From positions 1,798,001 to 1,862,000 of the forward strand of contig NC_058368.1 of assembly GCF_018350175.1 (NCBI RefSeq): 64,000 bases of DNA. The letters run 5' to 3'. Positions 25,328 to 50,211 of this stretch are shown in pieces. The position numbers and the translations under genes are program-made. How positions within the stretch are numbered: the stretch's first letter is position 1; every line of letters begins with the position of its first letter. This DNA is from Felis catus. Its lineage: Eukaryota. A model generated the notes under the pieces. That model saw only the letters and a program-made list of their open reading frames with translations, had not been told where the DNA came from and did not search any database.

Positions 25328-25525
25328 TTATTTTACACAAAGGAGGCCACCAACATTTGCCATAAACTCTTCTAAACTCTTTAGGAAGGCCATCTTCTGC
25401 TTCCGGTCCAGCGTCGGAGGAGTGCTGCTTGCGGTGAGCTTGTTGAAGGCATCTGCTAATCTCTGGTAAATAACCGGGTCTTGCTGACTTGACAGTAATG
25501 TTTCAACCAACTCGGAATATTCAGC
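25328..25525 (-). CDS. XPO4: Exportin-4 last coding exon (exon 23 by human numbering)
   Basis: AEYSELVETLLSSQQDPVIYQRLADAFNKLTASSTPPTLDRKQKMAFLKSLEEFMANVGGLLCVK*; acceptor TAG| at 25526-25527; 198 nt, phase 0. Confidence 0.97.
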   Translation of the reverse strand, partial: AEYSELVETLLSSQQDPVIYQRLADAFNKLTASSTPPTLDRKQKMAFLKSLEEFMANVGGLLCVK

Positions 25526-25751
25526 CTATTGAAGAGACAAAGTGTATACGTAAGAACATTTAGCTTCCTCAAATGTCACACAAGTAGATGATATCAGGTA
25601 CTACCTTGTGGGATTTCTGAAAGGCAGGGTCTGACAACGGCTCTTCTTCTTTTGCATTAAAGTGCAATTGTCATATAATATTCTATTAGTTTTGGGTGTA
25701 CGACACAATCATCCCACATCTAAATACACTGTGAAATGATCACAATAGCTC

Positions 25752-26219
25752 TTTTTTTTTAATTAAAAAAATATTTCTTTATGTTTATTCATTTTTGTTA
25801 AATTTTTTTTTAACGTTTATTTATTTTTGAGACAGAGACAGAACACGAATGGGGGAGGGGCAGAGAGAGAGGAGGACACAGAATCGGAAGCAGGCTCCAG
25901 GCTCTGAGCCATCAGCCCAGAGCCCGACGCGGGGCTCGAACTCACGGACCGTGAGATCGTGACCTGAGCTGAAGTCGGACGCTTAGCCGACTGAGCCACC
26001 CAGGCGCCCCTGTTTATTCATTTTTGAAAGACAGAGAGAGACAGAGCACAAGCAGGGGTGGGGCAGAGAGAGACGGGGCGGGGGACACAGAATCTGAAGC
26101 AGGCTCCAGGCTCCGAGCTGTCAGCACAAAGCCCGACGCGGGGCTCGAACTCACGAACCGCAAGATCATGACCTGAGCCGAAGTTGGATGCTCAACCAAC
26201 TGAGCCACCCAGGCGCCCC
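25752..26219 (-). mobile_element. Nested CAN-SINEs: younger copy (25798-26010) inside the tail of an older copy
   Basis: Inner TSD TGTTTATTCATTTTTG; outer TSD CACAATAGCTCTTTTT. Confidence 0.95.
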
Positions 26220-26417
26220 CACAATAGCTCTTTTTACTGATTAATATTCACTGAAAGTTCACTCTACTGTAAAAGTACTGTTCCAGCCTTTTACATTAGT
26301 AACTCACTTTTTATAACAATCCTATGAACAGCAGTACAAAAAGTACTGTTATTCTCCTGATTCACAGATGGAAGTACGTACACATAGTGAAATTAACATG
26401 TCTAAGATCACACTTGC

Positions 26418-26622
26418 TTTTTTTTAATCTTTATTTATTTACTTTGAGAAAATAAGCATGTCAGGGAGGGGCAGAGAGACAGAGAGGGAGAGAGAGAATC
26501 CCAAACAAGCCCCACACTCAGGGCAGAGCCCGACACGGGGCTTGATCCCATGACTGTGAGATTATGACCTGAGCCAAAATCAAGACTGAGACACATAACC
26601 AACTGAGCCACCCAGGCAGCCC
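26418..26622 (-). mobile_element. CAN-SINE inserted in a MIR remnant (~26270-26690)
   Basis: TSD AAGATCACACT; flanks show MIR-core-like CACAGATGGAAG. Confidence 0.88.
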
Positions 26623-28565
26623 AAGATCACACTGCTTTTAAGCAAGAATCCAGGCTGCTTGGCTCCTGAAGCCATGTGATTACCAAGTTTGTTGTCTCCT
26701 CTCTATTTTTCAACCACATTATTCATATTTATTTTGCATTTTATGCATAGTCTAAGTCTGCAACCTGACTCTCAAGCATTTCCCAGGGCTTTCTATAGGC
26801 ACCCTGTCCACACAGCTCTGAGGACAGCAGACCCGTACAAGGCAGACAGGAGCTGTCTGGGAGGGGGTGACACAAGGGGAGGGGTATATTTCAGTCCTTT
26901 CTCAAGGTGAAGGTGCAGACGTACCTCCAAACCAGTACTGGACTCAGTGGCTCTGGGAGAAAGGGCAGGAAAAGGAACCTAATAAATATAGGAACATGGG
27001 GGGGGGGGAGAGATATGTAGTGCTTCTACTTTTAATGCCCCTTATAATAAAGCCTTATACAGAAGAGAGAGTGTGGGGTTAAGGAACATTCAACCAAAAC
27101 AGCTTTCTAAGATAAGCTCTCTTAAAAAACAAACGAACAAACAACAAAAACTGGTCTGACACTATTTTTCATTAGCTTCTTGGGATATCATAATGGACCA
27201 AAGGGTGAAATGAAATATTAATTGCATTTGGAAAAGAAGAGTAAGGCACTGGACGCAATCCCTGACCCACAACACAAGCCGGGAACCAGGGTGGCCACCC
27301 TAAATGCCCTATCCAAGAGACATACCTACTCACAGAAGAGTAAGTATAAACTCCAAATCATTTCCCTATTCAAAAGACATGGTGGTCCCTCTGGAACCAG
27401 ACCAGCAGATCTCATGCTAGCCAAACCTAACGCCTTGCTCCCTTTTTTACAATGTGTGAATATGTTGTTGTTGTTGTTTAAAGGCATCTGGAATGCAATG
27501 GCTTATACATATGGGGACAAGACATCTATCTTCCAAGCAAGCAACAAGGAAGTAAAATGACACAGAAAGCCCACAGACCTGAGATGGGCACCATGTGCAG
27601 AGAGGACAGCAAGAACTCAAGCCCCAGAGTACCTTCAGCTTGGAGCGTAGATGGTATAGGAAGTCTACACAAAGGGAATCTTTAAGTTGTATGAAAAGGC
27701 CTCAAAATCCTATCTTTCTTCAAAAAGGTAAATAAAATCAAGCCCTGAGTGCCACTCACAGCAAATGCAATGGACTCTATATACTTTAAGGGGAAAAAAA
27801 GGCAAAGCTTTTAACAAAAGTCAATTGCTTAGTCATGCTGGGATGTGTGCATGTGCTAGGGGGTGGGGAGACCAAAAATTGGGGAAAGGAGTGTTGGGAA
27901 ACTGGGGCAGCTGATGATCTAATATGGTTCTTCTCATACACTTCACGGGCACCTACTCTACCAGAATAGGGAAGGGACAGGTGAGCTAGCGTTAACTTTT
28001 CTCCCATAACGTTAACCCCAAACAACGAGTGCGTGCTTCCGAGTCTTTAAAGGCTCAACAAAATAAATTGAAACAATACACTCCTTTCCGTAGTATAATA
28101 TGAAGCAACACACTTTCCCTACCATGACAGGAAATAATACACTGTTGATTTCCGCACTTTCTCAAGGCAGATCCTCTGGGTCCCCAGTCTTCTTCGTCTG
28201 GTCTCCCTTACAAAACTGTGAGTTCCTCAAGGACAGAAACTGTGCCTCTACTATTCTTTCATGTTAATTCTTGGTTCCAAGCACACTTGTTTACAAGGAC
28301 AAGCTTTAGGGCAGTGATCAATGCAAAGGATGATTCAGAACAGGGGAGAAGGGAAAGTAAGTGCTTATTCACTGACAAACAGCTTGTCAGAAGAGCTAAT
28401 GTGGAAATGAAGAAATACGCCCTCACTGAAAGCAATTGAAGCACTGAGTCACAGATTCTCTAAGAACTGGGAGTATCAAAGGCCCACTATCTGCACAAAC
28501 AATCTCCTTGCTGGAAAAAAAAAAAAAAAGGGAAGAGACCCAACGAAGAGACTTGTGCCCAGTAC

Positions 28566-28658
28566 CTGATGCAAGCACACCAACGTGTAGAAAGCTTCAC
28601 CGGCTGCAGTGGTCATCTCTGTGTTGTGCTTTTGCAAAACCAGCATATCAAAAACCAG
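28566..28658 (-). CDS. XPO4: Exportin-4 exon 22
   Basis: LVFDMLVLQKHNTEMTTAAGEAFYTLVCLHQ; 93 nt; CAG| acceptor, CAG|GTACTG donor. Confidence 0.96.
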
Positions 28659-29087
28659 CTGAAAGGACATAATACAAAACCTCTAAATAAAAATACATGA
28701 TGATCGTACAATCTCCCATCCTGTGTCTAATCCAAAAAAGACAAAGAGGGGTGGTAGTTGCTCTTATTTATTAAATAAATCTGAAAATGGAAGAAAACAG
28801 CTTTTTAAAGACCCAAGGATTTATAACAACAGAGGTTATTCCTTGCTGTGACATGTGCCATCATAAATGACCAGACTGTTACATTTGCCACGTCAGGTTT
28901 CAAGAACACACAAGCGGAGAATAAGGTGTCCAGGGAACTGGTCTCCAGAAAAGCACAATGAACAGAAAGTAATTCTTTCCTGCCCTCCGAATGACGTAAG
29001 CGTTGCCTCATTCGAATGAAGATTTGCAGGCACGAACTGTACTAAAGCAGACAGCTTCGCGACATGCCAGCCGAACATCTATCTTAC

Positions 29088-29205
29088 CTTTAGAAAGTGC
29101 CGTGTTGCTAGAAAAAGTGGTGAATCTGTTTCCTGTGCTTTTGCACACTGCTCAGCTAATGGCGTCAAAGCTTCCAGGCAAAGCTGGCAAACTTCCGAAC
29201 TCATT
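29088..29205 (-). CDS. XPO4: Exportin-4 exon 21
   Basis: (S)MSSEVCQLCLEALTPLAEQCAKAQETDSPLFLATRHFLK; 118 nt; preceded by U12-type branch site TTCCTTGAC and CAG|; donor AAG|GTAAGA. Not in the ORF track. Confidence 0.93.
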
Positions 29206-29751
29206 CTGATCATGAAGGTCAAGGAACAGACTAGGTGTATTTAACTTATAAAAGATTAAAAAATCATGGCTATTACCAAATTCTAGGAATGACCACAGTT
29301 AAGTGAGTACCCTAGTGTGCAATATGTCTTTCCAGGGTTGCGAGCTACACGACAAAAGGTTTCCAGTGTTTCGGAGAGGGTCTCGGACTGTAGATTTCTG
29401 ATGTGTTTCTGATCATGAGCACACAACTGATAAAAAGCCTTAGTATTCTCTACTACCGGGCAGCTGAGATCAGAGACTCAACAACAGTCGACGACATTAC
29501 TAATTGGGGCTCTTAATGAAAGAGTGACTTTCGGACCAGGCACCAAAAGCCTTTGGGATTGATCTGTGAACGGAGGACAAGATGAGGTGAACTAATAAGA
29601 GAAACACAGAATTAGGGCTGTTAGACGACAGCTTTCTTATGAAATAAAACTAAACACAAAGGAAAATTTAAAAATACAAGTTTTTAAAACTTTGGGAGAT
29701 TTTTTTTTCCCCCCAAGGGATAAATGATAATGATGTTCATTTAAAGGATAT
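29206..29751 (-). other. XPO4: XPO4 intron 20: U12-type (minor spliceosome) intron with AT-AG termini
   Basis: 5' end |ATATCCTTT (29751-29743); branch site TTCCTTGAC (29226-29218); 3' end CAG| with no polypyrimidine tract. These boundaries give TC|A = Ser and keep the frame between exons 20 and 21. Confidence 0.88.
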
Positions 29752-29882
29752 GATGTCATGCCTAGTTCTAGAGAGTACATCAGACTTTTAAAAAGATCTT
29801 CAGGAAGCTGTGGTATTTTTTCAGGAAAAATCTCACAGATAAATGTGATTAATTTGTAGTACTGATTACAAAGGGTTGGAAA
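29752..29882 (-). CDS. XPO4: Exportin-4 exon 20
   Basis: FPTLCNQYYKLITFICEIFPEKIPQLPEDLFKSLMYSLELGMT(S); 131 nt; TTTTTCAG| acceptor; ends at the U12 donor. Not in the ORF track. Confidence 0.93.
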
Positions 29883-31382
29883 CTGAAAAAGAAATATTAA
29901 ATATTTAGATGCTTAATGATATCTAATTTCTATTTTCATTAATGCAATAAAATAACCAATAAACTTGTAAATATAATTTCTCTAAAAGAATCAAGATGTA
30001 TAGAAAACATAAAGATCTAATTAAATATAAAAATGTTTCAATAAAGGAAATATTTTAGTAACATGAAAATAATGTACAGTAGAAGCAATTATCTTCTGGA
30101 CAGTTAATAACAGCTATCGCCAATTCCAGATAGTCTTGTTTACCTTGAAAAAGTAGACAAAGCAGCCAAATTTCAAACAATCAAATGACCTATAATTAAA
30201 ACCCTTTTGCAAATGTGTTTATTTGATTTCCAGCATGTTAGAAAAATACAAGAAGGTAATACAGATTAGGATTATGCATGAAATAGAGTATTCACTTCTT
30301 CACACTTCTAAAAGTTGGTTGGACAGTCCTGGAAAACTGAAGTAAAAAGTAGGCAATCTACAGTTTAGCAATTCTTAAGAAAATACACATCTAAATGTGT
30401 AATGGTTTATTTGATGAGAACCCCCCCCCACCCCTCACAACCAAACCAAAAAACCCTAAAAGAAAGCAATATACAGAGCTTAGGAAACTTCCCCATCCGA
30501 CTGGTGGCCACATGAACACTCAGCTCACGGGTCACCAATCATCTCCCAAAGACACTGCTCAAGGAGAGACACATGTGGTCCCCGCCTACTCTGTGGGAAT
30601 CTGACAGCACCTCCTACTCCTCAATGCGACTTCTAACCACTTCTCAACCGCTATTTTCTTCCTTCCCACGACCGACCTCTCTTTCCCTCTCCCACTCTAC
30701 CTCGTTCGTGTTCCACACACATGCGCACGCACACACCTCCCTCTTCCTTCCCAGCCATGTCTTTGTCCCCACCCTCACCCTCCGTGACAACTCACGAAAG
30801 AGACTCCCTTCTTCTGCGGTACCAAAGGAGGAAGAAAGGGCAGCCTCGTCACCACCCCACCCTCAATACTGACTGATGACCCCGAGACAGGACGTCGCCA
30901 GAATGCACACAAATTTAAAAACCGCTAGTCTTGGTTTCTTACCATCCCATTTCTACATGGGGTTGCTGGAAAACGCCTTCTGCTGCTCAATCCTTAAAAT
31001 CAGAGAATGACGTTCAAAAGCACGAGTGGAATACAAATACACCTAAACATATAACTTAATTTGCTCAATGACAAATGAGGGAATCAAAACTGCTAACATC
31101 AGAATTCAGTTTCTAAAAGAACCAGTTTTTTTTCTGTCGCTAATTATCAGTGAAGACAGGACTCTGGGGCAGGATTAAATGAGGGCACGAACCACGTACT
31201 GAGCTGCATGTGTGAGTATAAATGACACACAATGGGAACCAGAGCCTCTGATTTTCGTGTGTACTTAACAGACAAGCAGGTACTTATACCTCCTTAATTA
31301 AATCAGAGGTGTATTCTTGTCTACAACATCTTTGAACTCCGAGCAGACGGTTGGGGTTTTCACATTCACTGTCTTCAATTAC

Positions 31383-31501
31383 CTTCAAAAGATCTTGTGA
31401 CATCAGGGGCAGAATGAGGTTCACTCCATACAGAACAACATCAGCCGCGGACACAGACCTGTTTGCCGCCTGCCCTGGCTCATGTCCTCTGAACACCTCA
31501 T
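31383..31501 (-). CDS. XPO4: Exportin-4 exon 19
   Basis: (D)EVFRGHEPGQAANRSVSAADVVLYGVNLILPLMSQDLLK; 119 nt; CAG| acceptor, AAG|GTAATT donor. Confidence 0.96.
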
Positions 31502-32086
31502 CTGTTAAGACAAAAAGGTAGTCTTAGAATTGCAACATCAATAAACCTACAGAGTTACACGTATTCCCATCTTTGTGAGAAAGTAACAAAAGATGAAAAC
31601 CCCTAAGCCAAAATATATCTATGAGTGGACAGCTGATCAATCTGGCCCTGGGTCATCCCTTTGTATTTCATTTGTCAGGGTCTCTGATGCAGTATTCCGT
31701 GTTCACATTATTATTCTACAGTGATGGAAACTAACGCTTCATGTTTTAAAAAGTAGAATCGAATCTACTCACAAGGAAGTTATACTGTGAGTTAAATAAT
31801 TTCCACAGTAATATTTATTTTATCTATTAGGTGTGTGAAATTTTTCTATGCTGAAGAGGAATGGGGGGAAACAGAAATTAAAATGTTACAGAAGATGGTA
31901 GTTAACAAATAACTACCAATATTAAAAAGGCTTATTATCCTTAATCCATATAAAATGCATACAAATTAAGAATCCTCCTAAGACCTAAATAGGTAAATGA
32001 GGAAAATCCACAAACATCTATCAAACCCAAAGCCTAATGAAAAACAGTTCACTGCAATCATTAATGAAACAATGGAATTAAAAAAA

Positions 32087-32662
32087 AATTTTTTTTAACA
32101 TTTATTTATTATTGAGAGACAGAGGGAGACAGAGTATGAGCAGGGGAGGGGCAGAGAGAGGAGGAAACACAGAAACTGAAGCAGGCTCCAGGCTCTGAGC
32201 GGTCAGCACAGAGCCTGATGCAGGGCTCGAACTCACAAACCATGAGATCATGACCTGAGCCCAAGTCAGACACTTAACCAACTGAGCCACCCAGGTGCCC
32301 TGAAGCAATGAAAATTTTTAATGAATAGTTAAAAAAAATTTTTTTTTCAATGTTTATTTATTTTTGAGGGACAGAGACAGAGCGTGAGTGGGGGAAGGCA
32401 GAGAGAGTGACACACAGAATTAGAAACAGGCTCCAGGCTCTGAGCTATTAGCACAGAGCCCGAAGCGGGGCTCGAACTCACAAACCGTGAGATCACGACC
32501 TGAGCGGAAGTCAGAAGCTTAACTGACTGAGCCACCCAGACGCCCTTTTAATGAATACTTCTGACTCATTACATTAAAAATGACTTTTAAATGATAACAT
32601 TTAAACTTTTTAACGTTTATTTATTTTGAGAAAGAGGAGAGAGTGTGTGACTGTGCATGAGC

Positions 32663-32721
<59 letters not shown>

Positions 32722-32821
32722 CCCAAAAGCCGGCATGCGCTGGGAGTGGAAACCTATGTGGGGTCTGTCTCATAAAGGTGGGAGCCGGACGCTTAACTGA
32801 CTGAGCAACCGAGGCGACCCC
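32087..32821 (-). mobile_element. Three consecutive same-orientation CAN-SINEs (32087-32300, 32330-32545, 32600-32821)
   Basis: Three reverse heads; TSD-like TGAA.CAATG and TTTTAATGAATA; the third has a long (AG)n and a diverged body. Confidence 0.92.
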
Positions 32822-32911
32822 CCCCTTTATTTATTTACTTAGTTTTATCTTCCTTTGCTTTACAAAAAAGATAAGTAAAACAAAATTTAAAACCCTCACA
32901 CCTCACCTTAC

Positions 32912-33092
32912 CTGTATCGCTAAAATCTATGAATTCTTTTGACAGAAGGTTAGTGAGAAGTTCCATGATGAGAAGCAGGTCTTGGTACTGTTCTTCCTCT
33001 GCTGTAACATCTATTCTTTGCCGCCCCAAGTTATTCTTAGAATATACTTGCAGCAAAGTAAGGCAGGCTTCATACAGGTTCATAGCTTTGGA
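32912..33092 (-). CDS. XPO4: Exportin-4 exon 18
   Basis: SKAMNLYEACLTLLQVYSKNNLGRQRIDVTAEEEQYQDLLLIMELLTNLLSKEFIDFSDT; 181 nt; CAG| acceptor, CAG|GTAAGG donor. Confidence 0.96.
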
Positions 33093-34154
33093 CTGTAAGA
33101 GAACGTGCATAAATCATACTTAGTTGGGAAAAAATATCAACCCTAAAAGAAACTTGAAATTATAATCTAATAAATTTAGTCTGGATCCCAACAGTAGCTC
33201 AAACACTTGTTTGAAACTCTTATAAAACATTAAACTCTTATAACTCTTATAAAACAAAAAAATGAAACAGCATGCATTAAAGATTGCAGTTATGTTTTAA
33301 AAATTAGCAGTTTTCTAACAAAATTTGACATCCATTTTTTTTGTTCACTTGATAATACGTACTAGAGAGATAATAAGATTTTGGCAACAGAACTGTTTTA
33401 CTTCTGCTATTTACCTCTGTGTACACTATTTATTATTTTCAGATTTAAAACTGTTTAACTTGCAAAAGCAAAGTGTACCAAACCATGGTCTTAAATATCA
33501 GAATGGCAACGGCCTGCCCTCTCAGTCATGCATCTATGGCTACATTTGTAACATTTATAAAATAACCTTACTTTTGAGCAAGTGCCTTTGATCTAACAGC
33601 AACAACAACAAAGATTTACAACTCAGGAACCCACATGAAATGATTTAAAACAAGATTTATGCTAATCCACAGACAAATACAAATATATTCCTTTAGGGCA
33701 GTTTTAAAACAGCTTTCTAAATGATTTCTAAACAGGGTAAAAAGTGTACCTGTGGTTACTGATTATAAAAGAATTTAGCTTGTCTAAATTATCCATTTGA
33801 TTTATAAAGCAAAGATACAAACTGTCACTTAAAATTTTGAGCCTCAAGAGTTTCAACAGACAGAAATTGGTTAAATTTTTCTGTTTGTCTTATCAAACAC
33901 GCCTCATCTGAATGGTTTTGACTGAATAAAATACTATATCTCAAAGAAATTACTGGTTTTACCAACAGTTTTAGGTCAGAACTGACTTTCCTTCAATAAG
34001 CCTTCCCCTGGATTTTGAGTTCTTTTGAAAAGTTCTGAAGTCTTTTTGAAAACTCCTTTGGATAACATTCACAGAATTTAAAGGAAAGTGTCTGTTACTT
34101 TGTTATACTTTCAGGAGTTCTAATCCGAAAGAGGAAAAATTAGAAAGTGCTTAC

Positions 34155-34448
34155 CTCTCCAAGATAGCATATCTGTTTATGTGCAACTTCCACAAAAACT
34201 TCTATTATGAGATTGACGGTCTCTGGGGTATTTTTGTAAACTTCCATCAATCCAATGCAATTGGTAAGGAAGTCCATCAAAAAATTAAAAAGAATTGCTA
34301 CGTTGTCAATCTGGGTAGCCTCCGCAATGCCACACAGGGCCTCCAGCGTGGCCGTGATCTCCTGCTTGACTTCCTCCTGCTGGCACATCTGCTGAAAGTT
34401 TTCTTGATTTATCACTCTTAAGAATCGCTGCTGAAGTGGCTGAAGGAC
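34155..34448 (-). CDS. XPO4: Exportin-4 exon 17
   Basis: VLQPLQQRFLRVINQENFQQMCQQEEVKQEITATLEALCG...KQICYLGE; 294 nt; CAG| acceptor, GAG|GTAAGC donor. Confidence 0.97.
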
Positions 34449-34639
34449 CTGTCAAGTTAAAGCATCATTCTTCTAAAAGTTTAATTCCCACGATCCCTTT
34501 CTTTCAGCTTTACTCCCTCAACCTGGAGATGTCCCTTCTAAAACATTTCTGAAAGCACCGCAAACAATGATCGGAACTACAGGCTATGTTCCCCATCACG
34601 AGGGGACGCGTAACTTCTAACCTACAGAAAGAACGAACA

Positions 34640-35575
34640 CACAGTACACTGGTCCTTAGGGAAACGGAAATCAAAACCACAAGGCGACATCACCTCAGGT
34701 CTTTTAGAATGACCACCATCAAAAAGACGAGACAGAAAGGCTGGCAAGGATGTGGAGAAAAGGGGACCCCTGTGCACTGTTAGTGGAGGTTGTCAACTGG
34801 GGCAGCCGCTAAGGAAAACAGTGAGGAGGACCATCAAAAAATTAAAACAGAGTTACCATATGACCCAGTAATTCCACTGCTGGGAATATATCCAAAGGAA
34901 ACCAAGACAGCACTTAATCAGACGTCTGCACCCCCATGTTCACTGAAGCATTATTTGCAATGGCCGAGACATGAAAAAAACCTGAACGTCCATCCATGGA
35001 TGAATGGAAGGAGTTGTGATACATATGCAATCATACAGTTAGCCGTACAAAATGAGGAAATCCTACCATTTGTGACCACACGGATGAACCTTGAGGGTAC
35101 ACGTTAAGTAAGTCTGACAAAGAAAGACAAATACCATATGATCTTACTTAGATGAGGAATTTTAATACAATAAAATAATAAAATAACAAAACAAACAAAA
35201 AATCCCAACTCTCAGAAAAAGATCTGTAGTTGCTACGGTGGGGGTGGGGGGAGGTGGGAAAAGGGGGATTTGAACTTCCAGTTGTAAGATAAATTAAGTA
35301 CTGGGAGTGTCACGTATAACATGGTGACTATAGGTAAACACTGCTGTGTGACAGATAGGAAAATTGTTAAAAGAGTAGATCCTCAGAGTTCTCATCACAA
35401 GAAAAGAATTTTCTTTTGTTGTTTCTTTTCATTGTACTTATATGAGATCGTGGATGTTGACTGAAGTTCTTGCAGTAATCACTTCATAATATATGTAAGT
35501 CAAACCGCTATGCTGTACACGTTTTGAACTTGCGTAGTGATGCATGTCAATTACCCCATGAAAGTGGAAAAAGTA
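34640..35575 (+). mobile_element. L1 3' portion (end of ORF2 and 3'UTR), antisense to XPO4
   Basis: Translates ELPYDPVIPLLGIYPKE, the L1 ORF2 C-terminal motif, followed by an L1MA-like 3'UTR. Confidence 0.9.
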
Positions 35576-35789
35576 TTATTTATGGAAAAGCAAATCAGCA
35601 CATGCTATCACCTCACTTTCTAAAGTAATTTAGGTTCCAAAAACCACAAATCACGGAACATGACTTAGTCAATGCCATTCACAGAATTCTGTCACTATCA
35701 TCATCTCTTTCCAGTGGATTAACCTCCCCCCTCAAAAAGATGAAATTTAAGTCTCCAAAGGGTCAGAGAGTAAGTATCAACTTTGAAGA

Positions 35790-35950
35790 ATATGTCAACT
35801 CTGGCCCAACTATCCAATTACAATTTAGTACAGAAGCAGCCATAGATAAAATACAGACAATTGAACATGACTGTGTTTCCATAAAACTTTACTTAGAGAG
35901 AGAGACAGCAGGCCGATTTTGGTCCGTGGGCTCCAATTTGCCAAACACTG
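35790..35950 (-). mobile_element. MER58-like fragment
   Basis: GCAGCCATAGATAA...CTGTGTTTCCATAAAACTTTA...GGCCGATTTTGG...TTTGCCAA. Confidence 0.6.
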
Positions 35951-36294
35951 TTCTACATTCAGCTCTGGACTGTTTTTCTCCTTTCCAAATTTCTCTTGGC
36001 ATAGAGCATAACTTCAGAAAATCAGTCCTGTCCTGAGTGAACATGCATATTCATGAAGATATCTTAATTCTAAAGCTATACATATGATAATACAATTGTT
36101 TAAACTAGAAATATATGGTCAGCCTGGTTTTCTTTTGGTCTGAAGTCACAGATGACTGCCAAATTCTGTTACTGTGTCCCTTCTCAGACATTAAGAGCAC
36201 TCTAGTCACAAGGATTATAGGCCAGCCACCTATACTGATACCTCTTGGTTCCTGACTTAAAGCTAACTTACATAATGCAATGTGTTCACAGTGG

Positions 36295-36725
36295 TTATTG
36301 GTTGATTATGCATCCCCCCCCACCCCCGCAACTGATATGTTGAAGTCCAAATCTCTAGTACCTGAGAATGTGGCCTTATTTGGAAACAGGGTTGTTGCAC
36401 ACATAATTAAATTGAGTTAATTAGGGTGGGCCGCTAATCCAACGACTGGTATCTTTACACCGAAATGCACACATGGAGAATATCATGTGAAGATGAGATT
36501 ACGCTGATGCTTCTACAGCCTAAGAACACTAAAGCCTACCTGTCAACCACCAGCAATTTGGCAAGAAGCCTGGAACAGATTCTCCTTGATAGCCTTCAAA
36601 AGGAACCAACCTACCAACACCTAGACGTTGGATTCTGGTCTACACAACTCCAAGACAATACATTTCTGTTGTTTGCTCCACTAAGTTTGTGGCACTTTGT
36701 TACAGCAGCCTTAGCAAACTAATAA
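36295..36725 (+). mobile_element. MLT1 (MaLR) solo LTR
   Basis: GAATGTGGCCTTATTTGGAAACAGGG...TTAGGGTGGGCC...CTTTGTTACAGCAGCCTTAGCAAACTAATA. Confidence 0.85.
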
Positions 36726-37025
36726 TAATAATTTGCACCTCCTCATTCAACAGAAGCGGATATTTCACTGATTCTTTAGGCTCTCATTTGAGTTGTGGGC
36801 AAAAATGTGCCCATACTACAGAACGTTTGACAAAGTCATCACATATGCAGATATGGGCAAATTATAAGATGGTATTTGTAAAATAATAAGCTTCAACCTA
36901 TTCCATTATAAAGGGAAAAACATTAGAGAAGGTATGACTGAAATGTTTCTGTCTCCACAGAGTATTTTATGCCACCACATAGGGTAAAACATAAGAAGGC
37001 CGATCCAAATAAAGGAAACTATTAC

Positions 37026-37200
37026 CTCTGTCCAATACTGCTGTTTGGTTTCTGTGTCCATATGTGCAAAACCACCCAAGACAAGAGCCTTCATCAGTGT
37101 CCTCTGCACGGGACTTGACAGGAAGTTCAGAGGTGGGCTTCGACTTGCAAACTGCTTGGCTAAGTTCCACCAGTTTTCACACTGAATCACTAAGTTTGCT
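37026..37200 (-). CDS. XPO4: Exportin-4 exon 16
   Basis: (R)ANLVIQCENWWNLAKQFASRSPPLNFLSSPVQRTLMKALVLGGFAHMDTETKQQYWTE; 175 nt; TAG| acceptor, GAG|GTAATA donor. Confidence 0.96.
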
Positions 37201-37292
37201 CTAGAAGCCGAAGTAACAAAACAAAAGACGTATTACTTTACACTGCGTGTATACCGAGTAAACAAAAATGGAAGGTAACTGAATTTAATTAG

Positions 37293-37508
37293 TTTAAAAA
37301 AAATTTTTTTTAACGTTTATTTTTGAGACAGAGAGAGACGGAGCATGAACGGGGGAGGGGCAGAGAAAGGGAGACACAGAATCCGAAACAGGCTCCAGGC
37401 TCCGAGCCGTCAGCACAGAGCCCGACACGGGGCCCGAACTCATGAACTGCGAGATCATGACCTGAGCCGAAGTCGGCCGCTTAACCGACTGAGCCACCCA
37501 GGCGCCCC
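37293..37508 (-). mobile_element. CAN-SINE (SINEC_Fc type)
   Basis: TSD TAATTAGTTT; CpG-rich. Confidence 0.95.
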
Positions 37509-37529
37509 TAATTAGTTTTTAAAGTACAG

Positions 37530-37790
37530 TATATAGTAAACTGATATAAATTTTGGAGTCACACAAGTCTGTGCTCAAATCCCATTAGTTGTTTGACAAT
37601 GTAAAATTTATTTACTCTCTTATTTAGTTACCAGATCCGTAAAACAGGGTAACAACAGTAATAACAGCGTTAACTCTCATGGCTGATATGTACACTATAA
37701 CTAAATAGTTACAATAAAATTAAATAAAATACTATATATGAAATGCTTGAAACAGTACAGTAAGTTACAAGAACTCAATAAATAACAGTC
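37530..37790 (+). mobile_element. MIR remnant
   Basis: TTTTGGAGTCA...CTCAAATCCC...CCGTAAAACAGGGTAACAACAGTA...CTCAATAAAT. Confidence 0.55.
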
Positions 37791-37840
37791 AATGCTAAGA
37801 GTAATAACAATCACATTCCTATATAGTAAGAAAAATGTTT

Positions 37841-38060
37841 GGGGTACCTGGGTGGCTCAGTTGGTTAAGCGTCTGACTTTGGCTCAGGTCATGATCTCAC
37901 AGTTCGTGAGTTCAAGCCCCACACTGGGCTCTGTGCTGACAACTCAGAGCCTGGAGCCTGCTTCAGATTCTGTGTCTCCCTACCTCCCTCTCTGTCCCTC
38001 TCCAGTTTGTGGTCTCTCTCTCTCTCTCTCTCTCTCTCTGTCAAAAATAACAAAAAAGAA
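37841..38060 (+). mobile_element. CAN-SINE
   Basis: Typical head, (CT)n, A-tail followed by GA/CA simple repeats. Confidence 0.93.
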
Positions 38061-38209
38061 AGAGGGGATGGGGGGAGAGAGACAGAGAGAGAGAGAGAGA
38101 CACACACACACAGAGGGAGGGATAGAGGAGGAAAAATTTCCAGAGTTTGTTGTAGAAAACACTAAAACTCTTAATTTGCAAAATTATTAAATTATCAAGT
38201 TTTTCTCAC

Positions 38210-38241
38210 CTTTATTTTTATTGTTTTTTAGGTTTATTTAT

Positions 38242-38297
<56 letters not shown>

Positions 38298-38460
38298 AAC
38301 AAGCAGGGGAGGGGCAGGTGGACACAGAGAGAATCCTAAGCAGGCTCTGTGCTATCAACGTGGAGCCCAATGTGGGACCCGAACTCATGAACCATGAGAT
38401 CATGACCTGAACCAAAATCAAGAGTCAGACGCTTAACCGACTGAGGCACCCAGGCGCCCC
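38210..38460 (-). mobile_element. CAN-SINE with long (AG)n
   Basis: TSD CAAGTTTTTCTCA. Confidence 0.93.
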
Positions 38461-38762
38461 AAGTTTTTCTCATCTTTAAAACAGAATAATAGGATATCTG
38501 AAAAAATTAAATGAGACTACTAAAGTGTATTAAAATGTTTTTAAAACTATAAATTACTAAACACATGTTTCTCATAAGAGTCTTTGATGCCAATCCTTGA
38601 ATAGCCAAAGCAATCCTCAACTGTACCATGAGAAAGCTCTATTTACATTCATAGCAATAATATGATATTGACTGTGTCTTTTTTTTTTTTTTTAAACACA
38701 TTGCTCCCAAATGCAGGGTCTATTTGCATTTAGGACCATGTAACTGTTTGCCACTTGAAAGA

Positions 38763-38763
<1 letters not shown>

Positions 38764-38811
<48 letters not shown>
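38764..38811. repeat. (CA)24 microsatellite, read as (UG)24 in XPO4 pre-mRNA
   Basis: Perfect dinucleotide run beginning at intron position +27 after the exon 15 donor. Confidence 0.98.
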
Positions 38812-38815
<4 letters not shown>

Positions 38816-38837
38816 CAGCCTCCAATTATCACCTTAC

Positions 38838-39007
38838 CTTTCTCTTCTTTCCACCAAAGTGACAAGGAGCTGCACAGTGTCATTTGCAAGGTCCTGCTCA
38901 CTACTCCACACTGAGAGGTTACTGATGACTTTTTGTAAGAGGTAGCCAATAATCCACTGAGAACCTTCTGTATCTGCTCCAAATGCTGTACTGAATGGCA
39001 GACTTAT
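38838..39007 (-). CDS. XPO4: Exportin-4 exon 15
   Basis: ISLPFSTAFGADTEGSQWIIGYLLQKVISNLSVWSSEQDLANDTVQLLVTLVERRE(R); 170 nt; AAG| acceptor, AAG|GTAAGG donor. Confidence 0.95.
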
Positions 39008-39486
39008 CTTAAAGGAGAAAACAAAAATTTTAAGGTCAGAAAGATCAGCTTAAAAAGAAGTGCACAGAAAAATCAAACTGAAGTTAGCATCTAAATCTGG
39101 AGTACCGTTTACTTTGCATCAATTTTATAAACGCATTCATTTCTGGGAGTCCAAAATAAAACCTCCTCAATCCACGGACATCTTCCAATGTGAGTTAACT
39201 TTACTCTCATTAACACACTAACATGGTGTTCATACCAAACACAAAGAACGTAAATTAATCCATTCCCACTAGTAATCTATAAATTAATATGGTCAAAATA
39301 AGCTGAATCAAACGATGTGCTCTAAGGAAAGTTATTAAAATCGTACATCGTTCATACAGTTCTCTTCAATGTGGAAGATGTTCAGCTCTTAGTTACATCT
39401 CGATGAGAAAATCACCAAGAAAAATATTCTCATTTCCACAAGTGTCGAATTCATAAATCCAAACAAAGCCAGTTTTATATTCTGAC

Positions 39487-39646
39487 CTGATCGTATAGTT
39501 TCTCATCCACCAGGAGGTAAGTCTTTGCCCAGCGCTTTAGGAACCAAACAATGTCTTTGCCCATTTGAGGGCTTAGGAGGTGAGTGAGGTCTGCTCTTAT
39601 TGCTCGAGATTCAACCTCTGAAACTCTGAGAACAGCAGATAATAGC
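39487..39646 (-). CDS. XPO4: Exportin-4 exon 14
   Basis: (R)LLSAVLRVSEVESRAIRADLTHLLSPQMGKDIVWFLKRWAKTYLLVDEKLYDQ; 160 nt; CAG| acceptor, CAG|GTCAGA donor. Confidence 0.95.
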
Positions 39647-40120
39647 CTGTAGGCATAAAAAAGAAGTCGTTTATTCTTCCATTTATTTGGCCGTCTAATA
39701 ATATTTGCTTCTGAAAAGTCCTTTTTGTTCTGTTTTCAACTCTCTGAATTTAGGCCAGGCTATAACTTGAAATTTTCATCAGCAGGATGAAAGTCCCCGT
39801 TCATTGCTGACCCTTCAGAAGCAGGAAACAAGACTCAGTCATGGGTAGAGACATCCTTCTGTGGAAGTCTCAGCATTACCATCCACAGAGATTTTTCACA
39901 TTGGACAGATACATACAAGTAAAAGTTCAGAGTAAAGGCTACATTCTGCAGCCCTTCCTCACTACTTCACTCCACGGTTAGCACTGTTTATTTTGATACA
40001 TTTGTTATTTTATGGTGGAGGGTCTGGTAACTAACTTACCCAGAATGCTCTGAACATTAAATCTTGCCTCTAAATTGGACACTCCTATATACTTCCTAAC
40101 AAACTTGATTCTTACTGGTA

Positions 40121-40341
40121 TTTTATTTTATTTTTTTTCAACGTTTATTTATTTTTGGGACAGAGAGAGACAGAGCATGAACGGGGGAGGGGCAGAGAGA
40201 GAGGGAGACACAGAATCGGAAACAGGCTCCAGGCTCCGAGCCATCAGCCCAGAGCCTGACGCGGGGCTCGAACTCACGGACCGCGAGATCGTGACCTGGC
40301 TGAAGTCGGACGCCCAACCGACTGCGCCACCCAGGCGCCCC
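40121..40341 (-). mobile_element. Young CAN-SINE (SINEC_Fc)
   Basis: Perfect TSD CTTACTGGTATTTTA; CpGs intact. Confidence 0.96.
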
Positions 40342-41370
40342 CTTACTGGTATTTTAAAATGCAAGTCTTGCTAAAAAAGTTATCCACGTAAGCGTGCATA
40401 CTGTCCTCTCCTACACTACATAATTCATACGGCTGTGTGGTGTTAATAACAGCATGATATGCTGAGAAGTTAGAAAGTCTTCTTCCGGGGGTGGGAGTAG
40501 GAGAGAAGAGAACCCGAAGTGATACATATTTAGCTTGACTTGAGCTAAAAGGCAAAGAAGCTGAGGATGTAATTGAAAGGATCCATCTTAACATCATTTT
40601 ATAGATGTCCTGCCAAGACCGGGATCCTAATCACCTGAACCTTGGCTTCTGCTACTTCTCTTTACTGTTCTCAAGATGACTAAAAGTATCTCCCTGTAAT
40701 GAAATCTTACATTTCAGTTCTTTGTCCAACTGTATATCTCGAAAGTACTAGATACTATTTATCGCCCTATCCTTTTGAAATAATTTCTCCCCTTGAACCA
40801 CACAGGTTTTTAAGTTTCTACCCCCAGAACATCCTTTTTCCCTATATAACACCTACTCCCTATACTACCTACCAGTGCTCAAATTTTCAAAAATTATTTT
40901 AGGGTGGATATGAACGAAAATACTCCAGGACCTCACATTACATTTAAGTTAAAGTATCAGATTTTTCCCGTAAGAATAGTTTGAAATGATATAATCTGCA
41001 GCCTAACAGAATTTGAATTAAATAATTACAGTAACTTTGTAAATTTGTGCACAGGAATTTAATTATCAGTGTTTTGGTACCCACCATCATCCATTTGAAA
41101 AACAAGTTTTTCTTTAACAGTTGGAAACTTAATACATTCTTTTTCTCCTTAAATTTTTATTTCTTTTCCCCACAGGTTATCTTATTGTAATACATTTTTA
41201 TAGTCATTTTTATTGATCATACCACATCCATCTCTGAAACAAATGTCTAGTTATTGAAAAGTCATTTTAAAAAATTCCCAGTGACCATAAGACTTGGTTC
41301 TAAAATGTGTTTTGGACTTATTAGTATACAATTGAGCGAAGTATAACACAAATTTAAATTATTAAACATA

Positions 41371-41600
41371 GGGGTGCCTCGGTGGCTCGGTCAGTTAAAT
41401 GTCTGACTTGGGCTCGGGTCATGATCTTGCGGTTTGTGAGTTTGAGCCCTGCGTCAGGCTGTGCTGACAGCTCAGAGCCTGGACCTTACTTCAGAGTCTG
41501 CGTCTCCCTCTCTCTCTCTGCCCCTCCCCTGCTCACGCTCCTTCTGTCTCTCTCTCTTTTTCACAAAAAAATAAACATTTAAGAAAGTTAAAAAAATTTA
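41371..41600 (+). mobile_element. CAN-SINE
   Basis: TSD TTATTAAACATA. Confidence 0.93.
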
Positions 41601-42249
41601 TTAAACATAAAACTAAAATTCTATGCATTTGTGAATGAGATTAATGTACCAGGATTTTGTTTTTCCAAATTAGTTCATGCATCTGTGAAAAAAAAATGGC
41701 TAATTAAAAAATAAATTATTTAAAAAAAATTAGCAGCCATTAAAAAATATATATATATATATAAATTCCTTATTCTTAGAATGAGACAGAGTTGAGTATA
41801 ATTTGATTTGATTCCTTTTTCATTTTTATAGAAACACTGAGAAAACCTATTCACATAAATGGAAAAAGCAGTTTTAAAATAACAGGGTTCCTCAATTATC
41901 TGAACCTAGTTTTATGCAAAACATCACGAAGATCTACTATCAAAAACTATTTTTAATCATCTCTTAGCTGACAATTTGATTTCTTGAGTCCCGTAATGCA
42001 AAGGGCTGAAAAGCTCCTGACCTGTAAAGTCCCTGTCATCCGCTACTCGGTCATTCACTCCCGACACCACACACTCAATTCGGAACCGTCGCTTTATCTG
42101 GCACCGCACGCTTTGACGCACCTGCCTCTCCGTCACGTTAAGACTCAGAACGAGCAAGAGCCTTGCCTTTCTCTGGCAAAGCAGGAGCAACGTAAAGCAG
42201 CGCGGGCTCCTGCGGCCTCACTGCCACAGCCCGTTGGGCGAGCAAAATC

Positions 42250-42780
42250 CCACGGGGCCGCCTCTGACAGAACCTCTCACAGCCACCTGACTCTTTCCAC
42301 CCCCACTTTTACCAGTGGAAACGCTTCCTCACCTGCCTGGTCGCCCTTTGAACCCACCTTCCACGGTACAATCCTGCTACCACCGTCTGACCGGTCCACC
42401 TGCCCGTTTCCGACGTTCTTCACCACTTTCACTCCTACCTCAGTCGCCCCATCCCCAATGCCAACCCTACTTCTCCACCTCCGGAAACGTCTCTCCCCTC
42501 CACGTTCACATGTGAGCCACACCACACTTCCTCTTGCTTTAGGCCATGCTCTCCTCCCAGGCCTCGGCCTCTGCTGTTGCCGCTGCCTGGAATCTTCTTC
42601 ACCTTTTGCTGCATGTTGCAAACTCCTACGCATCCCTCAACTATCTGCCTAAATAAATAAATCTCTCCAAAGCACCCCCTGATCCTTCCCCTGCCAACAG
42701 GTTAGGTAAACCCAGGCGCTCCTCTATCCCTCTTATCAGACTCCTGTTGTATCCTCAGATCCTGGCATACGGGGGAGGTG
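42250..42780 (+). mobile_element. L2-like remnant
   Basis: C/T-rich with TGCTGTT.CC.CTGCCTGGAAT and AAACTCCTAC.CATCC motifs typical of the L2 3' region. Confidence 0.55.
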
Positions 42781-42870
42781 AAGGAACAACTCAAAACATT
42801 TTTGTCATTAAAGTGTAGTTGACACACACATGTTACAAAACATTTTTTAATTGTTGATAATTCCAATTTC

Positions 42871-43088
42871 TTTTTTTTTTTTTAATATTTATTCATTTTT
42901 GAGAGACAGAGAGACAGAGTGTGAGCAGGGGAGGGGCAGAGAGAGAGAGGGAGACACAGAATCCGAAGCAGGCTCTGGGCTCCGAGCTGTGAGCACAGAG
43001 CCCGATGTGGGGCCTGAACCCACAGACCGTAAGATCATGACCTGAGCCGAAGTTGGATGCCTAACCGACCGAGTCACCCAGGCCCCCC
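42871..43088 (-). mobile_element. CAN-SINE
   Basis: TSD TTCCAATTTCT. Confidence 0.94.
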
Positions 43089-43229
43089 GATATTTCCAAT
43101 TTCTAATCCTACTTTAATTTCTTAAGTATGGTATCTAAACATACTTCCTATTTCAGACAGCACTCACAGTTTCCCATACTCTACAAATTAATCTTGAATT
43201 ACCTTTGCATTCATAAACCAAAAGTCTGC

Positions 43230-43995
43230 AAAATGAGTCAGAGCTTGTTAGTTTCTCACATCTGCTATTATCTCTCTGATTCAGACCACTATCATCTTTC
43301 TCTTGGATTACTACAACTAGCCTCTTCATTGGTCTCCCTGCTTCCATTTTTGTCCTCATAGTTTACTCTCAGTGCAGCAGAGGAATCTTTTTGCACAGTT
43401 CTGCTCAAACCTTACGACAGCACCCTACTTCATTCAGAGCAAAGGCTAAAGCCTTGATCTGATATCCCTCTGTTTTCCCTTCTATCTTGATCTCCTGACA
43501 AAATTCCACCTCATTCTGCTCAACCCACAATGGCAGTTCTTACTATTGCCTGAATATGCCAGACGTGCCACAGGGCCTTAGCATTCCCTGTTCGCTCTGC
43601 CTGGAATACTCTTCCCAGGCCTTCACGGCCTCCCTCACCAACCTCAAGTCTTTGCTGACAAGTCACCTTCCAAATGAAGTCTGTTACTGATTACACTACT
43701 TAAAATTACACACAGTCCCCGAATCTGTGCTCCAAATCCCCTCACCCTATTCAGTTTCTTATCTAGAGCACGTAGTCTTCTAACACTGTTTTTCCTTCCT
43801 TCCTTCCTTCCTTCCTTCCTTCCTTCCTTCCTTCCTTCCTTCCTTCCTTCCTTCCTTCCTTCCTTCCTCTCATCCATTCATTATCTTTCTCCTACAAGGA
43901 GCTTTAAAGGGGGATTGATTTTTGTCTGCTTTGCTCACTGATGTATCCCAAATGCCTACAACAGTACCTGGTACTCAATTAATTATTTGTCAGAG
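43230..43995 (+). mobile_element. L2 3' region, including a (TTCC)n repeat at ~43792-43868
   Basis: CTCTTGGATTACTACAACTAGCCTC...CTCTGCCTGGAAT...GCTCACTGATGTATCCCAAATGCCTACAACAGTACCTGG...CTCAAT. Confidence 0.8.
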
Positions 43996-45342
43996 GATAA
44001 ATTCTTCAAGAAATGTGAACTTTTTTTACAAACAAGGAATGTTTCTCTCATACGCCTTTCAATTTCACATTAATTCTTTGGACTTAAAAAAAAAATAGGG
44101 TGTTTTTTTGGTTTTTGGTTTTTTTTTTTGGTTTGTTTTCCAACCCTCCATAGTCTGTGCTCTCAGATACAAAAATATTTTGCTCCCACACTGATACCTT
44201 AGACTGGCAAAAATTGAAAAAGCACTGAAAATACAAGGAAAGCATACCTGATGGTACTGCCCAGGCAAGAAATATGACAAAGAATATAATATGACAGCCC
44301 TCTGAAATGAGCTGCCTTTGAAATTAACATTCACCATGAATCAAACCAAAGCAAAAGCAATGATTTTCACAAGCAATTAACCTAGCGCCTATAGTAATCC
44401 CCAAAAGAAGAGATAAAAATTTTGCAAAAATAGAGCATTGGTATTTTATTTCAAACAAGAAAATAAAACAATAAAGGAAATAAATTCCTAAACATTTCCT
44501 TGATAGTTCATTAAAAAAAAAAAATCCTGTTTTCTACTGCACAGGTATAAATGATATCCATGTATTTTTGAATTAAATTAAAAAGATGAAGGGGACAGCA
44601 CCCTGCTTGAGTTACTGATTCTGCAATTGACAAAAACCAGTGTTATTTCATTATTGGTGTATCTGCCTGCAACTTAACTTTAAAGATACTGAAATTTCAA
44701 ATGTTGGTTTTAAATCCACTTGTAGGAGGATATTCGGTCTAGGTTTATCCTTCCTTAATTTCACCATTAAGAATTAATGAAAATTTTGGCACTACTCCTA
44801 GGAAGATCAAAGTGAATTCTCATTTGAGGCACACAATTGTCTTCTAACTTTACCTGACAGGACACTCAAGTTTCACATATTCAGAACAAATACTTCAATT
44901 TTATAAGGTAAGAATCATAGTTTTCCTTCAGAAAGCCACTGAAATGTAGTTTTAGCTTTATGAACAATAAAAACTTGCCAATGTTCACCTGGTGTCTAGG
45001 AGGCTCACAGACTTTGATTCACTCATTTAGGGCACCTGTGCCACATCAGCACTGCTTTCTGATGGCCAAGGGACATGTCCCTTCAAACTTACACTGTATC
45101 CAGAATAATTTGACAAGTGTTTTCCTCAGTACAGGATATAGCTGTCAATTCTCACCAGAGTGGCACTGCTTAAATATACCGAGTACTTGCCATCCTTGTT
45201 TATTTCAAGGCTTCTCCAAGTTTTATTTTCTTTCACGTATCAGATTTACAATGTGGCCAACACAGGAGTCATCTACCCATCAACTCAGAATTTATTTAAA
45301 ACATTATCAATTACAAGAGCACAGCTATAGAGTTCATATTAC

Positions 45343-45520
45343 CTAATCACAGAATCTGTTCTGTTGTACCCTGGGATGGAAGAAGCCTTTTCTCCTGGAG
45401 ATCCCAAAATTTGAAGTGTTGTATTAATGTCAACTTCAGATGAATGCTTAATGGAATATTCCATTATTTCTGGAGGTATTAGCGGAGTCTCTCCCTGAGT
45501 ATCATCAGCTAAGAGGTAGC
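45343..45520 (-). CDS. XPO4: Exportin-4 exon 13
   Basis: (G)YLLADDTQGETPLIPPEIMEYSIKHSSEVDINTTLQILGSPGEKASSIPGYNRTDSVI(R); 178 nt; AAG| acceptor, TAG|GTAATA donor. Confidence 0.95.
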
Positions 45521-45929
45521 CTTCAGTTTAAAAAAAATTAAAAACGAACACTTAACAAATCTACATTTATCAAGTTGCACTATAAATGTTCTCAGTTTTA
45601 TCTGATTTACATACATATTAAGTTGATGTAAAAGTAAATTATAAATGTTAATGTTAATTTCAAGTTTGATGAGTAGAAACTATTTCTCAGATAATGAACT
45701 CTCAAAATACAAAGGACAAATATTTTATTCACCAATTTTATAATTCATACTGATAGGTAGGCTTTTTAATCTACTATCTTTTAATAACTTTTAGTACTAT
45801 ATTCAGTAAAATTAACAGGAATTCTATTATCTATATCAAAGGCAATATTTGGGAGTGCCTTTTCCAAAATTAAGATTTTTTTTTCTTGATTATTAAAAAC
45901 ACAGAAACATTGACAGTATGGTTATAAAA

Positions 45930-46140
45930 GAAGACCCTACAAGTCAGACTGCCTAGATTTGCATTCTGGTTCCGGAAATTAATAGCAGTGTGACCACAGG
46001 CTACGTTCTTAAAACTCTCTCTCAGCTTCTTCATTTGCGAGATGAGGATAGTAACAATAATGAAACCTGACAACAGTACTAAGTCACTGGGCTGCAATGA
46101 ATTCCACATAAGACATTTGGTATGCAACAGACACTAAATA
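45930..46140 (+). mobile_element. MIR remnant
   Basis: AGTCAGACTGCCTAGATT...TGTGACC...CTCAGCTTCTTCATTTG...GGATAGTAACA. Confidence 0.65.
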
Positions 46141-46323
46141 TGCATGTCAGCCAATATTTTTACAAAATGCATCCCTAGCTCTGTGATATACAGCATCTGT
46201 ATTCAAATTTCATCCAACACTATGTACGGAACTTATTTTTAACATATGAAGCTTCTTCTAACACATAAGAACTTTAAACTGCTCAGTTGGCGATTACACT
46301 TCAGAAGGCAACAACCAACCAAC

Positions 46324-46469
46324 CTGTAACTAAAATAAGCCAGTGAATATCTTCATACAGATCATCAAGCATTTTGTTGTCTAGAGTGCTCGAACCAGGT
46401 GAAGCAAGTAACTGCTGCTGATGCCGCTGTAACTGACCGTGGAGCCTCGTTACTCTTTCTTCTAATAGG
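46324..46469 (-). CDS. XPO4: Exportin-4 exon 12
   Basis: (S)LLEERVTRLHGQLQRHQQQLLASPGSSTLDNKMLDDLYEDIHWLILVT(G); 146 nt; CAG| acceptor, CAG|GTTGGT donor. Confidence 0.96.
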
Positions 46470-46984
46470 CTGAAAAGGGGGGAAAAAACCCAAAGTTTCA
46501 TAAAGTTCAATACGCAAAGATCTAGAACAAACTGTATACATAATTTCCATTTATGAGACAACATAAATTAAGATGTTAGCACAAAAGCACATATATGAAA
46601 ATATTTATTGTAGTACACAGCTGTTCTCATAGCAGTATAGGAATTGTGATTTATTCTTTATGACATAGAATTAAAACATTGCTTTACAAACAATCAAGGC
46701 TTACAACAGGCATTCGAAAACTGGTCATTCCAAGTTTTTATTGACATGGGTCAAATCATTCTCATACCATGTTTTCCACAATCTCTCTGCCATCTATGCT
46801 GTGGTGCCTGGGCTCCAAATGTACAAGCCAAGGAATGCAACCATGAGTATGTTTCTGTCCGTTTGTTCCAGTGTGCTGGGATACGGGGTGGGGGTGTTTA
46901 AAGTCTTTAAACACTTTAAGTGCTCTCCAGGGAATTGTGAATAGAGAGTATTTGCTCCATGGGGTTTCTTTGGACTGTGTGTAC

Positions 46985-47127
46985 CTTGTCAGAAGAGGTA
47001 TACAGTGTTCTGCAGCAATCCTTCCTAGCATTCCTACACTGGCTAGTTGATCTGAAAACTGGTCTCGATCATCCTCTTGAAGTTCACTTATTTCTTCTTC
47101 CTCACGAGAGGCCACACCATTGGCAGT
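46985..47127 (-). CDS. XPO4: Exportin-4 exon 11
   Basis: TANGVASREEEEISELQEDDRDQFSDQLASVGMLGRIAAEHCIPLLT(S); 143 nt; TAG| acceptor, AAG|GTACAC donor. Confidence 0.96.
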
Positions 47128-47746: not shown

Positions 47747-47923
47747 CAAATTCCTCGTGCCATCTGGAGCAGCGAGGTGGCACTGAATATAGGAATTGAA
47801 AACTTGAACTGCATGTTGGGTAAAAAAGCCTTTGTGGAAATGTTTGTCGTCTTGGACCAAAGTTAGCCAGGATTCCAGCAATTTGTCATAGGCTTCCATG
47901 TACACCATGTCATCTTTATCAAG
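47747..47923 (-). CDS. XPO4: Exportin-4 exon 10
   Basis: LDKDDMVYMEAYDKLLESWLTLVQDDKHFHKGFFTQHAVQVFNSYIQCHLAAPDGTRNL; 177 nt; TAG| acceptor, TTG|GTAAGC donor. Confidence 0.96.
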
Positions 47924-50109: not shown

Positions 50110-50211
50110 TTTTTTTTTTTTAAGTAATCTCGACACCCAGTATGGGGCTCAAACTTACTACCCCGAGACCAAGAGCCACAAACTCTACTGACTGAGCCAA
50201 CCAGACACTCC
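50110..50211 (-). mobile_element. Short older CAN-SINE
   Basis: Same short type as 219-328 (TAATCTC.ACACCC...TGGGGCTCAAACT...CTGAGCCA). Confidence 0.78.

Follow-up and report, generated by a model that had tools for sequence, protein, structure and literature searches.

A predicted U12-type intron with AT-AG termini in the exportin-4 gene of Felis catus, very probably the orthologue of a catalogued human minor intron

Introduction

Minor introns that combine an A-start U12 donor with a terminal AG form a rare subtype: Table 2 of Sheth et al. (2006; PMC1557818) counts 11 U12-type AT-AG introns in human and 8 in mouse. The same paper places U12-type introns of the unrelated genes NUP210, USP21, RAPGEFL1, and INPP5B in this subtype, with AT-AG termini common to human and mouse, whereas its Table 3 gives AT-AG in human and GT-AG in mouse for the exportin-4 gene (XPO4). 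The human XPO4 intron (chr13:20787599-20788485, minus strand) is classified as U12 A-type, AT_AG, in the datasets of de Wolf et al. (2021; PMC8280824). Its mouse counterpart in Xpo4 (chr14:57585985-57586579, 595 bases) is a GT-AG U12-type intron and is the same intron of the same gene by the orthology tables of PMC6717393 and PMC1557818. The 12-base 5' splice sites listed in the supplement of Olthof et al. (2019; PMC6717393) are ATCATATCCTTT for human and ATCGTATCCTTT for mouse XPO4, and its expression tables show high values in testis for both species.

Removal of the human intron responds to perturbation of the minor spliceosome. In the datasets of PMC8280824, its retention (PSI) in HeLa cells was 0.099 in the control and 0.392 and 0.578 after 24 h and 48 h of CENATAC depletion (padj 2.6e-28 at 48 h), with log2 changes in XPO4 mRNA of -0.27 (24 h) and -0.69 (48 h). 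Retention also increased from 0.092 to 0.266 between ZRSR2 wild-type and mutant samples (padj 0.026) and from 0.115 to 0.293 between healthy and MVA patient cells, and no response to CENATAC depletion was seen among the 85 major AT-AC-type introns (PMC8280824). Knockdown of U6atac is reported to give less XPO4 protein in three prostate-cancer lines (bioRxiv 10.1101/2021.12.09.471104), and U11 ablation in mouse gave validated changes in the splicing of Xpo4 (PMC12956336). A second human XPO4 minor intron (chr13:20827180-20842894) is likewise A-type and retained upon CENATAC depletion (PMC8280824).

The proposal that AT-AG introns are intermediates between AT-AC and GT-AG forms is also a published hypothesis (Sheth et al. 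2006, PMC1557818; Turunen et al. 2013, PMC3584512). For the human orthologue, the literature thus already covers the intron and its rare subtype, the need for the minor spliceosome, the difference between human and mouse, and the "intermediate" hypothesis. Literature searches found no paper on the XPO4 minor intron in cats or other carnivores, where it would be a routine orthologue. Here we describe the intron in a stretch of 64,000 nucleotides of the cat genome (NC_058368.1, positions 1,798,001 to 1,862,000), referred to below as the window.

Results

XPO4 gene and reading frame. The exon at 47923-47747 matched PDB entry 5dlq chain B, Exportin-4, in a structure search (58 of 59 residues identical, E = 7e-36). 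Used as a query, the same exon returned 295 of 301 candidates at E <= 1e-10, and the names among the 120 listed were mostly vertebrate exportin-4. Mapping of a full-length protein model onto the window gave 16 exon matches on the minus strand (Table 1). Joined, these exons comprise 2616 bases and 871 codons, end at a stop codon at 25330-25328, and contain no internal stop, which bears out the claim of an initial sequence-only reading that a serine codon split TC/A at the intron keeps all 16 exons in one frame. The 871-codon product aligned with the 1151-residue model P0084 as a single ungapped block (833/871 identical, residues 281-1151); identity was 808/810 with the dog model P0030 and 868/871 with that of a snub-nosed monkey, values so close that they do not discriminate between the two lineages.

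The AT-AG intron is the 13th among the 15 XPO4 introns of the window and the third counted from the end of the gene. That reading had labeled it intron 20, a label which presumably would fit an XPO4 gene of 23 exons. The other 14 introns are all GT-AG with U2-type donors.

Table 1. Positions of the XPO4 features and of example repeat sites in the window
Feature	Position	Strand	Description
Last 16 coding exons of exportin-4 (XPO4)	25328..60066	minus	871 codons, residues 281-1151 of the 1151-residue protein
Upstream exon (window exon 13; exon 20 in the initial reading)	29752..29882	minus	131 bases; ends ...GGC ATG ACA TC, TC being part of a split Ser codon
Predicted XPO4 minor intron	29206..29751	minus	546 bases; AT-AG termini; U12-type (A-type minor intron)
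5' splice site ATATCCTTT	29743..29751	minus	9/9 to the U12-type consensus RTATCCTTT from intron base +1
Branch-point sequence TTCCTTGAC	29218..29226	minus	9/9 to TTCCTTRAY
3' splice site AG	29206..29207	minus	earliest AG past the branch motif
Downstream exon (window exon 14)	29088..29205	minus	118 bases; starts AATGAGTTCG at 29205; A completes Ser, then Met-Ser-Ser-Glu
Short interspersed repeat, example sites	near 7120, 8126, 25969, 26178, 32260, 37467, 43047, 48586	minus	
Short interspersed repeat, example sites	near 2116, 2752, 8587, 11773, 13590, 37882, 50686	plus	

Intron boundaries. Every donor/acceptor pair that preserved protein length was enumerated, with no dinucleotides assumed, against four proteins, namely, dog P0030, P0084, newt P0047, and bat P0027. 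The best match was obtained only with 29751/29206 (AT-AG) or with its one-base slide, TA-GA, at 30/30, 30/30, 30/30, and 29/30 residues for the four proteins, and the enumeration against them found no GT-AG or AT-AC alternative for this junction. We take the 29752/29205 junction to be the one used in the cat because of this protein conservation and because of the human orthologue. With these boundaries the intron starts with AT and ends with AG, which would place it in the AT-AG subtype of the A-type (AT-AN) minor introns. The exon end, the directly following ATATCCTTT with no GT at the boundary, and the intron end TTCCTTGACCTTCATGATCAG (more fully, ...TCTGTTCCTTGACCTTCATGATCAG, with the last G at 29206) all lie on the minus strand exactly where the initial reading had put them.

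Splice signals. The only A of TTCCTTGAC, at 29219, is the presumed branch adenosine. It lies 13 bases from the last intron base (29206) and 14 from the first exon base, with no intervening AG; the earlier figure of 14 nucleotides from the intron end therefore holds when counted to the exon and becomes 13 when counted within the intron. The optimum distance between the branch A and the 3' splice site of U12-type introns is given as 11-13 bases in the review of Turunen et al. (2013; PMC3584512), and the spacing of the XPO4 intron is at the edge of this short range. The earlier description of an intron lacking a polypyrimidine tract is a matter of degree. No pyrimidine run in the last 40 bases exceeds 6, at the low end of the 5-17 of the 14 GT-AG introns, but pyrimidine content at positions -3 to -25 is 73% (0.73, inside their range of 0.41-0.86), because the branch motif is itself pyrimidine rich.

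This pyrimidine content, together with the existence of AT-AC introns of the U2 type (Sheth et al. 2006; PMC1557818), might suggest that the major (U2-type) spliceosome removes the intron despite its AT-AG ends. The signals argue otherwise: the donor fits the U12 consensus perfectly and does not resemble a U1 site, and the branch motif, like its distance of 13 bases, is of the U12 type. The human orthologue, moreover, responds to CENATAC depletion and ZRSR2 mutation in the datasets of PMC8280824, to the former of which major AT-AC-type introns were insensitive. Removal by the major spliceosome is, on these grounds, very improbable, and we treat the intron as U12-type.

Chance occurrence of the motifs. 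By itself, neither motif stands out from chance in the window; the signal is positional. RTATCCTT was found 7 times on both strands (4.96 expected; 28 of 100 shuffles reached 7) and TCCTTRAC 9 times (5.51 expected; 11 of 100 shuffles reached 9). On the strand of the gene, only the donor motif at 29751 has branch motifs downstream within 20 kb, in three pairings, and only the 526-base pairing puts the branch motif directly ahead of an AG at an exon start. Both motifs thus paired are at the exact exon edges demanded by the protein. Assuming equal base frequencies, our own arithmetic gives a chance of ~3e-5 for a fixed-position 8-mer with one two-fold position, ~2e-4 for the branch motif in a six-base spacing window, and ~1e-8 for both positioned motifs jointly.

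The second XPO4 minor intron of human was also sought in the window and rejected as a candidate there, as no other RTATCCTT site adjoins an exon edge and none of the other 14 introns is U12-like. The intron ahead of the first mapped exon has a normal pyrimidine-rich AG acceptor (60067-60140, minus strand); therefore, the second minor intron would lie upstream of the window. Unlike the AT-AG intron, it has canonical AT-AC termini and is farther upstream in the gene, beyond the window.

Comparison with the human and mouse introns. The window strings were compared by eye with the human strings in the CENATAC datasets (PMC8280824). The cat and human introns share the gene, the split serine codon TC/A, the AT-AG termini, and the spacing between branch motif and AG. 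They agree at all of the first 15 intron bases (15/15) and at 27 of the last 29; in the flanking exons, 9 of 10 upstream bases agree, the exception being one synonymous change (GGC in the window, GGA in human), and 6 of 6 downstream. One of the two 3'-end differences is in the branch motif, which is TTCCTTGAC in the window and TTCTTTGAC in human, the window being one base nearer the consensus. The introns differ in length, with 546 bases in cat versus 887 in human. The mouse 5' splice-site 12-mer in the supplement of PMC6717393 matches the window at 11 of 12 positions, with G in mouse at intron base +1, and the branch 12-mers are CGATCTTTGACC in mouse and TGTTCCTTGACC in the window.

A single base separates the window from a GT-AG donor, and mouse carries G at the position of 29751, so that an assembly or base-calling error in an ordinary GT-AG U12 intron, as in mouse, has to be considered. 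The window base at 29751 is, however, that of human, within a run of 15 identical bases, and the window contains no N anywhere; we consider such an error to have very little probability.

Agreement in gene, split codon, and splice signals indicates with high confidence that the window intron is the orthologue, in a nonhuman mammal, of the catalogued human XPO4 AT-AG minor intron. The initial reading of a U12-type XPO4 intron with AT-AG termini agrees with the published human classification (PMC1557818, PMC8280824, and PMC6717393). It had also allowed that the intron might be catalogued for human; it is, in these three sources, which removes the novelty of the intron.

Gene models at the junction. 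Exportin-4 models of at least 700 residues (93 retrieved) were compared at the junction; 88 span the neighboring exons, and the other five were not counted. From fish to mammals, the junction is clean in 64/88 models, 8/88 carry 3-54 extra residues exactly at the junction, 10/88 lack both flanking exons, and 6/88 deviate in other ways. About a quarter of the models (24/88) are therefore deviating at the flanks of the minor intron, in agreement with the suggestion of the initial reading that gene predictors misannotate this site. When all 15 junctions were scored alike as a control, the minor-intron junction was the least clean (65/88), while the 12 junctions not adjoining it were clean in from 76/92 to 90/90 models. 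Insertions were also most numerous there (8), the next highest number being 7, at junction 11. The excess of deviating models at this junction is real but moderate.

The models with extra residues, which include P0009, the representative of a 599-member cluster, could be read as real isoforms whose donor lies a few codons into the intron and whose junction is elsewhere than at 29752/29205. In seven of the insert-carrying models, however, the extra residues begin Tyr-Pro-Leu, which is the read-through of TAT CCT TTA, intron bases +2 to +10 and part of the U12 donor motif itself. This form would require AA-AG, AA-GA, or AT-AA boundaries in the window, none of which has a splice-site consensus, and the insert lengths vary by species (3, 5, 10, and 54), as expected from ad hoc fixes by annotation pipelines. 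Given also the majority of models with a clean junction, a donor inside the intron is highly unlikely, and the AT-AG boundaries are retained.

The two flanking exons together comprise 131 + 118 = 249 bases, and omission of both preserves the frame (83 codons), so that omission offers a predictor an easy way out. Some of the models lacking both exons may nevertheless be real isoforms. The ten models (P0007, P0010, P0017, P0022, P0046, P0055, P0061, P0069, P0073, and P0075) come from rodents, whale, birds, snake, and sturgeons. Their omissions fit an intron that is hard to model and probably U12-type across vertebrates, but they could also reflect true exon skipping.

A predicted model of another felid, P0015 (Prionailurus iriomotensis isoform X4), also lacks both flanking exons and has a short alternative exon instead. 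This exon matches the window at 15 of 16 residues at 30943-30990 (minus strand), in the intron upstream of exon 29882-29752, and this match is the best pointer to a felid source among the protein comparisons. The matching segment is flanked by AG and GTAAGA, and reading at phase 0 from the preceding exon leads to an immediate TGA. The form may be a real isoform that splices around the minor intron or a prediction artifact.

Other features of the window. A scan of the whole window against Rfam at gathering thresholds gave no matches. Pfam searches with the single exons 2344-2766 and 34155-34448 found no family in either, the pieces being too short to inform. Within the open stretch at 2344-2766, positions 2473-2619 (minus strand) matched the C-terminal portion of P0022 at 59% over 51 residues (E = 4e-10). 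This fused snake model carries PF10237, and one source names it EEF1A lysine methyltransferase 1. Because of this match, EEF1AKMT1 is the probable identity of the downstream gene, which shares its strand with XPO4. Long G+C-rich open stretches, the longest of 159 codons and with abundant Gly, Arg, Ala, and Pro, occur at 15250-16350 (minus strand) in a window with an overall G+C content of 39.5%; the region resembles a CpG island and may be the promoter of the downstream gene, past the 3' end of XPO4. A short interspersed repeat was found at 15 sites (Table 1), with translated pseudo-peptides containing AQV(M/T)I. We take these copies to resemble the tRNA-derived SINEs of carnivores, which would be in keeping with a felid genome.

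Discussion

Splicing of the XPO4 intron. The mechanism considered here is taken from the established U12 pathway. It starts from what was observed directly: the splice signals and their identity with those of human, the exact intron boundaries, and the open reading frame. The U11/U12 di-snRNP would jointly recognize ATATCCTTT through U11 and TTCCTTGAC through U12, with the A at 29219 bulged, and U11 at the 5' splice site would then be exchanged for U6atac. The first AG, 13 bases beyond the branch point, would serve as the 3' splice site without the help of a polypyrimidine tract. An A-type (AT-AN) minor intron such as this would be expected to show somewhat inefficient splicing and a strong dependence on CENATAC. 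The efficiency of AT-AG introns may also be below that of canonical minor introns, since AT-AG combinations "appear to be disfavored" in the review of Turunen et al. (2013; PMC3584512). That the cat intron depends on the minor spliceosome, and how much of it is retained, is inferred from the human and mouse data.

In the retained-intron frame, the split codon still encodes Ser and is followed by 37 codons and a TAA at 29639-29637 (minus strand), as the initial reading had predicted (about 37 codons and then TAA), with two further introns downstream of the TAA. Retention would accordingly end translation ahead of two more introns, and the likely result would be a nonproductive, degraded transcript and less exportin-4. 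A rate-limiting role of the intron for exportin-4 is plausible, as basal retention of ~0.10 in human rises to 0.58 upon CENATAC depletion and the human protein drops with U6atac knockdown.

Evolution of the AT-AG state. The base at intron position +1 is A in human, A in cat, and G in mouse, and by parsimony over these three taxa A would be ancestral and the A-to-G step would have been made in the mouse lineage. Models from monkeys, sheep, goat, and golden mole stumble at the XPO4 donor, which would fit a non-GT start there. We judge it about as likely as not that AT-AG is ancestral for this intron among placental mammals and long-lived there, rather than a fleeting intermediate. The consensus-perfect branch site in the window may compensate for the AT-AG ends.

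The XPO4 minor intron is a useful check of genome annotation, and the cat intron adds a data point outside primates and rodents on the persistence of AT-AG introns or their conversion to GT-AG. If AT-AG is indeed the long-lived state, a supposedly disfavored hybrid intron would have persisted in an essential transport gene over tens of millions of years.
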